DNA of 62,686 nt, counting the filler. It is 7 parts of 7 records of this genome, joined end to end, with 100 filler letters (N's around TTAATTAATTAA, not from the genome) between each part and the next. Parts side by side here need not be neighbours in the genome. Positions count along the whole stretch, not along the records: positions 1 to 9,529 come from DRR723986_10107; 6 more parts are not named here. The stretch is one strand, 5' to 3'. A model generated the notes under the pieces. That model was not told the DNA's origin and did no database searches. It saw only the letters and a program-made list of their open reading frames with translations. Below, piece after piece: positions 5,120 through 5,647 of the stretch. The position numbers were made by a program, and so were the translations under genes. Numbering within the stretch: position 1 is the stretch's first letter; each line of letters opens with the position of its first letter.

Positions 5120-5150
5120 TTGACTTGCCTTGACCTGCGCCGTAGTTTTG
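5120..5150 (+). promoter_or_regulatory. Promoter of the leader/met operon
   Basis: TTGACT(5120-5125)-N17-TAGTTT(5143-5148); also fits the Bacteroidota TTG-N20-TAnnTTTG consensus (TAGTTTTG 5143-5150); lies 25 nt before the leader-1 ATG. Confidence 0.7.
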
Positions 5151-5175
5151 TGCCGTTCAATAATCGAACAATCCA

Positions 5176-5286
5176 ATGCCAACGCAAAAACTCCATATCG
5201 ATCAAATGCCGGCCGGCTCCATGAACATGGTGCCTATGTGTATGTACTATATGTGCATGTGCATGCATTCGAGTGGAAGGGGATAG
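5176..5286 (+). CDS. Met/Cys-rich attenuator leader peptide 1 (36 aa)
   Basis: MPTQKLHIDQMPAGSMNMVPMCMYYMCMCMHSSGRG*: 9 Met and 3 Cys, with 7 Met + 3 Cys in codons 16-30; too short for the ORF track. Confidence 0.8.
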   Translation: MPTQKLHIDQMPAGSMNMVPMCMYYMCMCMHSSGRG

Positions 5287-5313
5287 TCGTTGGTGATTGA
5301 GATCGCAAACTTC

Positions 5314-5347
5314 AAAAAGCCCTTCCGAGTTTCGGATGGGCTTTTTT
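5314..5347 (+). terminator. Attenuator terminator 1
   Basis: AAAAAGCCC-T-TCCGA-GTT-TCGGA-T-GGGC-TTTTTT; the 5' arm CCCTTCC (5320-5326) is complementary to GGAAGGG (5275-5281) in leader 1. Confidence 0.85.
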
Positions 5348-5425
5348 GTTTTCTGACTACAAAAATTGCTGGTTTTTGTACACAAACGACGTGATAAGCG
5401 CCGTTATAGCATTGGCTTGAGTTTT

Positions 5426-5551
5426 ATGCAACAGGTATGTCTGAATACAGATTCGCAATGCACCAAGATTACATGTATGCCACAGATGGCATATATGATG
5501 TGCTGCTGTATGCACCGCCCGCAGGGGAAGGAGCCTGAGATGTATTGCTAA
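5426..5551 (+). CDS. Met/Cys-rich attenuator leader peptide 2 (41 aa)
   Basis: MQQVCLNTDSQCTKITCMPQMAYMMCCCMHRPQGKEPEMYC*: 7 Met and 7 Cys; start codon is uncertain. Confidence 0.75.
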   Translation: MQQVCLNTDSQCTKITCMPQMAYMMCCCMHRPQGKEPEMYC

Positions 5552-5581
5552 GCATATAAACCAACACAAGCAAATACAATC

Positions 5582-5614
5582 GGCCTTCCCCACACTGTGA
5601 GGAAGGCTTTTTTT
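5582..5614 (+). terminator. Attenuator terminator 2
   Basis: GCCTTCC-C-CAC-ACT-GTG-A-GGAAGGC-TTTTTTT; the 5' arm CCTTCCCC (5584-5591) is complementary to GGGGAAGG (5524-5531) in leader 2. Confidence 0.85.
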
Positions 5615-5647
5615 ATGTCTGATAAATCATAAATGAGGTCTCTGATC

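Follow-up and report, generated by a model that had tools for sequence, protein, structure and literature searches.

Two Met/Cys-rich leader sORFs, each with its own terminator, probably form ribosome-mediated attenuators in series ahead of metY-metX-hom

Leader-peptide attenuation is the textbook mode of control for the trp, his, leu, thr, ilv and phe operons, and methionine genes are known to be controlled by MetJ/MetR, S-adenosylmethionine (SAM) riboswitches or T-boxes. Here we describe the 5' leader of metY-metX-hom at positions 5120-5647 (+ strand) of a 62,686-nt window, the whole stretch of DNA that was analysed, in which two short open reading frames (sORFs) rich in Met and Cys codons are each followed by an intrinsic terminator. 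The closest described systems are given here as the available portions of their sources present them. The mycobacterial polycysteine sORFs of the 'Cys ribulon' are leaderless, contain Cys only and act by translational control (Canestrari et al. 2020, 10.1101/834739), and Cys leader ORFs without terminators have been predicted before actinobacterial cys operons (Seliverstov et al. 2005, PMC1262725). In Rhodobacterales, the element uORFC-8-2 before cysS combines a Cys uORF with a terminator stem, and ribosome-mediated attenuation has been proposed for it (Brewer et al. 2021, PMC8632094). The Salmonella mgtCBR leader contains two short ORFs and tandem, independent attenuators (Lee and Groisman 2012, PMC3641672). 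For Flavobacterium psychrophilum, the available part of Table S7 in a transcriptome study assigns leader-peptide elements to ilvE and hisG and none to metY (PMC9723704). In a search of the full-text literature, with many subscription journals outside its coverage, no methionine gene turned up with a Met or Met/Cys leader attenuator, and the statement in a preliminary description of this DNA that no tandem Met/Cys attenuator has been described stands as far as that literature reaches.

The region is a real, conserved regulatory element, and it is probable that metY-metX-hom is preceded by a series of two transcription attenuators, both ribosome-mediated, which would respond to the charging of Met- and Cys-tRNA. 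The order is promoter, sORF1, terminator 1, sORF2, terminator 2 and then metY-metX-hom. Sequence and ORF reading located every element where the preliminary description had placed it; the codon counts it gave, nine Met and three Cys for leader 1 and seven of each for leader 2, are exact, and CMH indeed closes both Met/Cys clusters. ORF calling places sORF1 at 5176-5286 (+; 36 codons plus TAG), where it encodes the peptide MPTQKLHIDQMPAGSMNMVPMCMYYMCMCMHSSGRG with its nine Met (start included) and three Cys. Of the 15 codons in its Met/Cys cluster (MNMVPMCMYYMCMCM, 5221-5265, +), 7 encode Met and 3 Cys. The candidate antiterminator tract TGGAAGGG (5274-5281, +) begins 9 nt past the last Met codon of the cluster and ends 2 nt before the stop codon at 5284-5286. 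Intrinsic terminator 1 (5314-5347, +; -19.0 kcal/mol) consists of a core stem at 5319-5341, A/U pairs that extend it to 5314-5346, and a U6 run at 5342-5347. The second unit repeats this layout: sORF2 (5426-5551, +; 41 codons from ATG 5426 plus TAA) encodes MQQVCLNTDSQCTKITCMPQMAYMMCCCMHRPQGKEPEMYC, with seven Met and seven Cys, and the 13 codons of its cluster (CMPQMAYMMCCCM, 5474-5512, +) include 5 for Met and 4 for Cys. Tract 2 (GGGGAAGG, 5524-5531, +) begins 12 nt past the last Met codon of its cluster and lies inside the ORF, 17 nt before the stop codon; terminator 2 (5583-5614, +; -14.0 kcal/mol) has its stem at 5583-5607 and a U7 run at 5608-5614. The distance to the metY start is 33 nt from the end of terminator 2, with no overlap, and 301 nt from the end of terminator 1; comparison with relatives identifies ATG 5648 rather than 5633 as the conserved start. 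Both sORFs have orthologues in the two most closely related loci, L001 (metY 84% identical) and L170 (83%). Those of ORF 1 share the ending ...GRG before the stop codon, and that of ORF 2 starts with ATG in L001 and with GTG at the equivalent place in L170.

A separate sequence feature, TYCAWATCGM, is conserved near the start (codons 5-9) of leaders of the unit 1 type, namely at 5188-5202 in the window and in L001, L170, L171-L176 and L201. It encodes F/L-H/N-I-A/D and is absent from unit 2, and its pairing with the tract is no better than chance. It may matter as a peptide, as an initiation context or as a signal for pausing.

The promoter lies upstream of unit 1. A -35-like hexamer, TTGACT, is read from the sequence at 5120-5125 (+), 17 nt upstream of TAGTTT, and this TTGACT-N17 arrangement recurs before the leaders of relatives L171-L176 and L179. 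A sigma-70 scan did not list this promoter, the second hexamer TAGTTT failing the rule of the scan, and it returned no + strand site in 4869-9216. By motif scan, TAGTTTTG at 5143-5150 (+) is a -10/-7 box of the TAnnTTTG type, which we take to be the Bacteroidota -7 consensus. It is the sole match in 5000-5650 with both strands scanned, it aligns with TAACTTTG in L001 and has an identical counterpart in L170, and its end lies 25 nt ahead of ATG 5176. Between terminator 1 and metY neither the sigma-70 nor the TAnnTTTG scan found a promoter motif, including the stretch after 5347 where the preliminary description had considered an independent promoter, and the inter-unit spacer contains no conserved block in the window-L001 alignment. 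Together, the motif scans and the alignment argue against an internal promoter between the units without disproving it.

The Met/Cys clusters are exceptional within the window. Across six frames of all 62.7 kb, eight or more Met/Cys codons in 15 stop-free codons occur only at the two sORF sites, and the same search in 20 Markov sequences of equal size gave a mean of 0.05 places. Chance is excluded as the origin of the clusters, in which Met and Cys account for 10/15 codons (sORF1) and 9/13 (sORF2). The preliminary description had seen no riboswitch or T-box, and the Rfam check it suggested agrees. An E-value scan of 4700-6000 gave 17 matches up to E 10, none of them near its gathering score and no SAM, T-box or other riboswitch model among them. 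The best, Thr_leader, scored 21.3 bits against a cut-off of 55, on the minus strand and over the terminator hairpin only, and the Rfam leader models reached 15-21 bits against cut-offs of 50-55, likewise in the terminator region only. The gathering-score scan of 1-9529 gave 0 matches, and an nhmmer profile built from 71 SAM aptamers of relatives found no match in the window. A SAM riboswitch or T-box in the window is thus ruled out by the Rfam scans and the aptamer profile.

The tandem is conserved among relatives. metY loci were taken from species genomes (L001-L080) and metagenomes (L081-L160), with metY 71-84% identical and Bacteroidota names where named. L001 has no aptamer; it carries the promoter box and two leaders, each with a terminator, leader 1 ending ...CPMCMCMCMSDPGRG and leader 2 ...GCMMMMCCRMHRPTREEPE at their stop codons. 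In L170 the tandem is as in the window. Both units of both loci keep an intact ORF, Met/Cys cluster, tract and terminator, and most of the identity in the window-L001 alignment falls within the promoter box, the clusters, the tracts and the terminators, with a 44-nt indel in the inter-unit spacer. Among genomes related to that of L001 (G001), 61 were searched and 12 have metY at E <= 1e-100; G001 itself and one locus cut by a contig end were set aside, and in every one of the remaining ten a terminator follows a Met/Cys sORF (10/10) and there is no SAM aptamer (0/10). L171-L179 carry a single unit (e.g. ...VMMQMCMMMCCCM...RENV...). A tandem of its own, with U9 and U8 terminators, is present in L050, from a Flavobacteriales metagenome-assembled genome, and the 80 metagenome loci (best identity 76%) yielded no new SAM-less tandem. 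Pairwise unit identities in the window clade group unit 1 with unit 1 and unit 2 with unit 2, and do not settle whether the L050 tandem arose separately.

To this conservation is added covariation, assessed over a set of 17 units having a terminator, from 13 loci. A terminator follows 17/19 Met/Cys units at the SAM-less loci examined, and the spacing from stop codon to terminator is 23-40 nt in 17/17 units. In alignment A2 of these units the terminator helix is 97.4% paired, with compensatory change on both sides in 6/9 pairs; 0/500 shuffles match the observed values, and slid controls are 45-59% paired. Antiterminator pairs were counted by a dedicated script, alignment A2 shifting the tract by one column between clades. 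In the window, tract 1 forms eight pairs with 5320-5327, one of them G-U (run of 8, shuffle p 0.045), and tract 2 forms eight Watson-Crick pairs with 5584-5591 (run of 8, shuffle p 0.0055). The tract is complementary to the 5' arm of its own terminator in 17/17 units, with ungapped runs of 6-9 pairs; its distance is 0-13 nt from the cluster upstream and 5-24 nt from the end of the stop codon downstream. Shuffle p is <= 0.05 in 13/17 units by duplex energy and in 9/17 by ungapped run, and one unit per distinct arm sequence (7 types) gives a Fisher's combined p of 1.3e-5. The arms read CCCTTCC, CCTTCCCC, CRTTCTCAC, CACTCTCC, CCATTCC, CCTTCGG and CCTCTGG, and the tract varies along with the arm. 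The survey upstream of metY orthologues that the preliminary description had advised found conserved Met/Cys sORFs and covarying terminator/antiterminator pairs, and its core claim of tandem control of metY-metX-hom is backed by conservation in L001 and L170, a similar tandem in L050 and the covarying helices.

The terminators also bear on whether the sORFs might instead act by control of metY translation or by Rho-dependent polarity, like the mycobacterial polycysteine sORFs. There, according to the available portion of Canestrari et al. (10.1101/834739), ribosomes stalled in the poly-Cys tract open an mRNA structure that sequesters the ribosome-binding site. Also in favour of such a route, our scan finds no terminator for most SAM-linked Cys sORFs of other Bacteroidota. 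We consider such control very unlikely at this locus: a GC-rich hairpin with U6 or U7 stands 27-31 nt after the stop codon of each sORF, most Met/Cys units at SAM-less loci are built likewise, and the metY start is clear of terminator 2.

The tract-to-terminator complementarity is hard to place if the products of the sORFs are functional peptides, metal-binding or modified, and the hairpins do no more than end genes. The peptides are certainly rich in Cys and Met, and a short N-terminal motif, F-H/N-I-A, is found repeatedly in leaders of the unit 1 type. Peptide conservation is nevertheless limited to composition, the sORFs always stand directly before metY or another sulfur/redox gene, ORF and protein-family scans show no modification genes nearby, and the complementarity would serve no purpose. 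We find this explanation scarcely credible.

If the element were a switch made of RNA alone, with a metabolite or a protein as its ligand, the Met/Cys codons would be a by-product of an AUG/UGC-rich structure. In line with this, the cluster regions are self-complementary and form hairpins, and the leaders fold better than dinucleotide shuffles (z -2.61 for unit 1 and -3.21 for unit 2). Yet no Rfam family matches, the 5' part of the leader shows no conserved pairing with the tract, and cluster order and length vary between relatives while the Met/Cys content persists in one open frame whose start and stop codons stay in frame. Codon order varies (MCMCMCM, MMMMCC, MMQMCMMMCCCM), Cys is encoded now by TGC and now by TGT, and unit 2 of L170 starts with GTG in place of ATG, a pattern that fits selection on translated codon content and does not fit selection on RNA sequence. 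The probability that we attach to an RNA-only switch is accordingly very small.

Anatomy, conservation and covariation are what we observe, whereas we infer that the sORFs are translated, that ribosomes stall on them and are coupled to polymerase, and which way the response runs. Each unit would comprise a short ORF with a Met/Cys run followed, inside the ORF, by an 8-nt purine tract able to pair with the 5' arm of the terminator, 37-51 nt away. When charged Met-tRNA and Cys-tRNA are ample, the leading ribosome would reach the stop codon and cover the tract while polymerase makes the terminator; the hairpin would then form and transcription would end near 5347 or 5614. Scarcity of either charged tRNA would stall the ribosome in the cluster and leave the tract free to pair with the emerging arm, giving readthrough. 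A trp-like region 1, sought as complementarity between the 5' leader and the tract, was rejected, with no complementarity beyond chance in 17 units (p < 0.05 in 0/17). A weak five-pair contact of 5191-5195 with tract 1 in one nascent fold was out-competed. Since no region 1 would mask the tract, an untranslated leader should read through, and because Met shortage limits initiation too, such readthrough would suit a Met sensor. metY would be reached only by readthrough of both units, so that two probabilities would multiply, and an AND gate or a sharpened response from the two units in series is plausible.

Folding calculations agree with this scheme most clearly for unit 1. The calculations took the nascent RNA as far as the loop of the terminator and masked 30 nt for the ribosome. 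Without a ribosome, the antiterminator has a probability of 0.92 in unit 1 and 0.97 in unit 2. With a ribosome on 7/8 sampled cluster codons of unit 1 it forms with a probability of 0.64-1.0, which drops to 0.02 when the ribosome is on the last cluster codon and to 0.00 when it is on the stop codon. The minimum-free-energy fold of 5470-5620 is the tract-to-arm helix of unit 2.

Several results weigh against two attenuators that work in this manner. The unit 2 antiterminator forms in all states, with a probability of 0.85 even when the ribosome is on the stop codon (A site 5549). As that codon lies 17 nt past the tract, the tract would be covered only while the ribosome passes over it, and in the model termination at unit 2 needs a ribosome in transit over the tract, or following ribosomes. 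Full-length leaders at equilibrium adopt the terminator fold under every ribosome mask, the forced antiterminator and terminator folds having energies of -55.5 vs -62.9 kcal/mol in unit 1 and -66.0 vs -66.4 kcal/mol in unit 2; as the terminator always wins at equilibrium, the choice must be kinetic, as it is in classical attenuation. The unit 2 tract is weak in L001 and L170, where the runs span six pairs, G-U pairs among them (p 0.54 in L001 and 0.28 in L170), and L032 has two Met/Cys frames with no terminator detected by the scan. The units share descent, and neither the per-unit p values nor the test of Met share given below is independent. With these points counted, two attenuators in series remain the reading that we prefer.

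Whether unit 1 takes part in the control of metY is a question of its own. The gene might be regulated by unit 2 alone, unit 1 being a separate short transcript that gives rise to a trans-acting RNA or peptide, or else a decaying duplicate. Unit 1 does close with a strong terminator 301 nt ahead of metY, one unit suffices in relatives L171-L179, and for trpL of Sinorhizobium trans roles of both attenuator RNA and leader peptide are reported in the available portions of two sources (PMC7298713, 10.1101/606483). We still rate this as unlikely. The ORF, cluster, tract and terminator of unit 1 are kept in L001 and L170, where the inter-unit spacer is unalignable, and a tandem is present in L050 as well. 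In addition, the single promoter motif lies upstream of unit 1, so unit 2 and metY would be untranscribed unless unit 1 is read through.

A related arrangement can be seen in the 437-nt ilvE leader of PMC9723704 Table S7, the available part of which annotates one peptide: in our own reading it contains repeated Ile-rich mini-ORFs, each followed by a terminator-like hairpin and a U-tract. These repeats suggest that tandem leader attenuators may be a habit of the phylum.

The two units do not appear to divide the amino acids between them. The preliminary description had assigned Met to leader 1 and a balance of Met and Cys to leader 2, and this division is not upheld, as both units are mixed and the bias flips between orthologues. 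The best 12-residue windows hold 5M:3C in unit 1 and 4M:4C in unit 2 of the DNA under study, 4M:4C and 5M:3C in L001, and 3M:4C and 4M:3C in L170. The Met share is higher in leaders of SAM-less loci (median 0.50, n=29) than in sORFs adjacent to SAM-I (0.17, n=88; Mann-Whitney p 1.5e-6), a comparison in which some loci scored as SAM-less have short upstream DNA and the loci are phylogenetically non-independent. The difference fits Met codons having taken over the role of a lost SAM sensor.

The distribution of the SAM-I riboswitch (RF00162) gives this idea its context. SAM-I lies upstream of metY in 70/80 of the loci from species genomes, and its aptamer is present in 124/160 of the distant Bacteroidota metY loci as a whole: 98 have an aptamer and a Met/Cys-rich sORF, 26 an aptamer alone, 9 an sORF without an aptamer and 18 neither, and for the other 9/160 the upstream DNA is too short to judge. 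The SAM-linked sORF typically adjoins the aptamer and ends ...CMCCCC before its stop codon, and a crude scan usually shows no U-tract terminator after it.

Two further observations concern these SAM-linked loci. The aptamer adjoins or overlaps the Cys-rich sORF in 98/160 Bacteroidota loci, for example at L006:2653-2860 (...ICMCCCC to the stop codon). In L059, L077, L100, L129, L132 and L144 the order is aptamer, terminator and then a Cys sORF that ends ...CCCMP.

The lineage of the window looks Bacteroidota-like. C-terminal sorting domains of the type IX secretion system (T9SS) number 80 to 150 or more in each of G001 and four relatives, and 0 in 14 control genomes; these counts point to a Bacteroidota-like clade despite the title 'uncultured Hyphomicrobiales bacterium' of L001. 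The metY of L001 also groups with Bacteroidota, and the Hyphomicrobiales label of L001/G001 looks wrong. SAM-I has not been lost entirely from the lineage: one aptamer is retained in each of G001 and G004, ahead of another Cys/Met PLP enzyme gene, and one in the genome of L050, ahead of a homocysteine S-methyltransferase gene. A Met-Met-Cys-Cys 12-mer occurs 4-13 times per genome in five relatives vs 0-1 times for the reversed control, most of the 30 loci returned with it being not leader-like. One relative, G024, has besides the metY leaders a further complete unit at L201:1419-1610, with the peptide MTNNTFHSAVACSMMNCTVMMPQMCGMMMMCCAMPKRR (...MMPQMCGMMMMCCAMPKRR), a tract and a U7 terminator, and it precedes a 1-Cys peroxiredoxin gene (AhpC-TSA plus 1-cysPrx_C). 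This unit is a hint of a small Met/Cys regulon governed by stalled ribosomes. Another candidate for an extra leader, L204, was dropped, as it lies inside a 269-aa gene in another frame.

Taken to its widest extent, the picture would be that a family of ribosome-based Met/Cys sensors replaced SAM-I at metY in this T9SS-bearing, Bacteroidota-type lineage, with a default ON state, units in series that multiply the decision, and further sulfur/redox genes such as the 1-Cys peroxiredoxin gene in a Met/Cys 'ribulon'. We advance this tentatively, as a possibility that falls a little short of an even chance. Were it true, a Met/Cys leader attenuator would fill a missing specificity, and riboswitch and ribosome sensors would be interchangeable at one locus over evolution. 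A default ON state would answer the objection that Met, needed for initiation, is unreadable by a leader peptide: failed initiation and stalled elongation would both lead to readthrough. The loci would also form a natural series for signal combination, from SAM only through SAM plus a Cys leader and one Met/Cys leader to the tandem, the signals combined being the pool of the cofactor SAM and the charging levels of two tRNAs. The sORFs and terminators, at present unannotated, merit annotation in Bacteroidota genomes and account for long 'empty' metY leaders.

Downstream of the leader, metY (O-acetylhomoserine sulfhydrylase) spans 5648-6964 (+; TIGR01326, 673 bits, cut-off 495), metX (homoserine O-acetyltransferase) 7107-8192 (+; best family TIGR01392, 333 bits, under its cut-off of 500), and hom (homoserine dehydrogenase) 8177-9406 (+; NF004976, 303 bits, cut-off 205), with a 16-nt overlap between metX and hom. 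The 142-nt metY-metX spacer contains a perfect 10-bp hairpin at ~7017-7040 (CUGAGCGCAA...UGCGCUCAG) without a U-tract and folds more stably than 200/200 shuffles (z -3.1); the hairpin may be a processing or stability element. The ~1 kb upstream of the promoter (4100-5119) has no convincing gene and holds the GC minimum (45%), and a 144-codon frame on the minus strand at 4566-5000 is interrupted by one in-frame stop. Further upstream, an HxlR-type helix-turn-helix regulator gene lies at 533-1204 (-; PF01638, 91 bits), and neither Pfam nor NCBIfam gives a match for its neighbours, the minus-strand ORFs 2087-2710, 2777-3514 and 3545-4099. The window is divided into seven pieces, which are separate contigs, by six pairs of 44-N runs with 12 bases between the two runs of a pair (9530-9629, 18789-18888, 34102-34201, 42320-42419, 48556-48655 and 57153-57252); the metY locus lies on the first piece (1-9529, ~50% GC). 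The pieces from 9630 to ~46000 have 58-65% GC, so linkage, and even a common origin, is not assured.

Compared with the known systems, the window leaders come nearest in design to the classical attenuators trpL, hisL, leuL, thrL and pheL of E. coli/Salmonella (Rfam Thr_leader, Leu_leader and Phe_leader), in which an sORF with codons for the product, a terminator and an exclusive antiterminator leave the decision to the ribosome. The sORF before a biosynthetic operon, the terminator and the mutually exclusive antiterminator are all present here, and region 1 is absent. The window leaders depart from the classical attenuators in having Met and Cys codons, a tract placed within the ORF shortly ahead of the stop codon, and two full units in series; the classical leaders show no sequence or model similarity to the window leaders. 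The predicted behaviour also differs from that of trp, since an untranslated leader without region 1 should read through rather than terminate and so be ON by default.

With the mycobacterial and actinobacterial Cys sORFs, as the available portions of the sources describe them, the window leaders would share the principle that stalling on Cys codons reports sulfur amino-acid supply and that one such device can serve more than one operon. In mycobacteria the sORFs are leaderless, have no terminator and unmask a ribosome-binding site, whereas in the window, whose leaders do not fall into that leaderless poly-Cys class, the ORF starts ~25 nt past the promoter box, Met is mixed with Cys and a canonical terminator follows. 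uORFC-8-2, to the same extent of its source, differs in having two Cys codons only and no Met, in preceding a tRNA synthetase gene, in being a single unit and in belonging to another phylum. In the portion available on mgtCBR, one ORF responds to ATP and the other to Pro-tRNA, ahead of a non-biosynthetic operon, whereas the window units look like diverged copies that would read the same amino acids. SAM-I in other Bacteroidota occupies the same position before the same genes and exerts feedback on the methionine branch by premature termination; it differs from the window leaders in being a metabolite-binding aptamer that senses SAM rather than tRNA charging.

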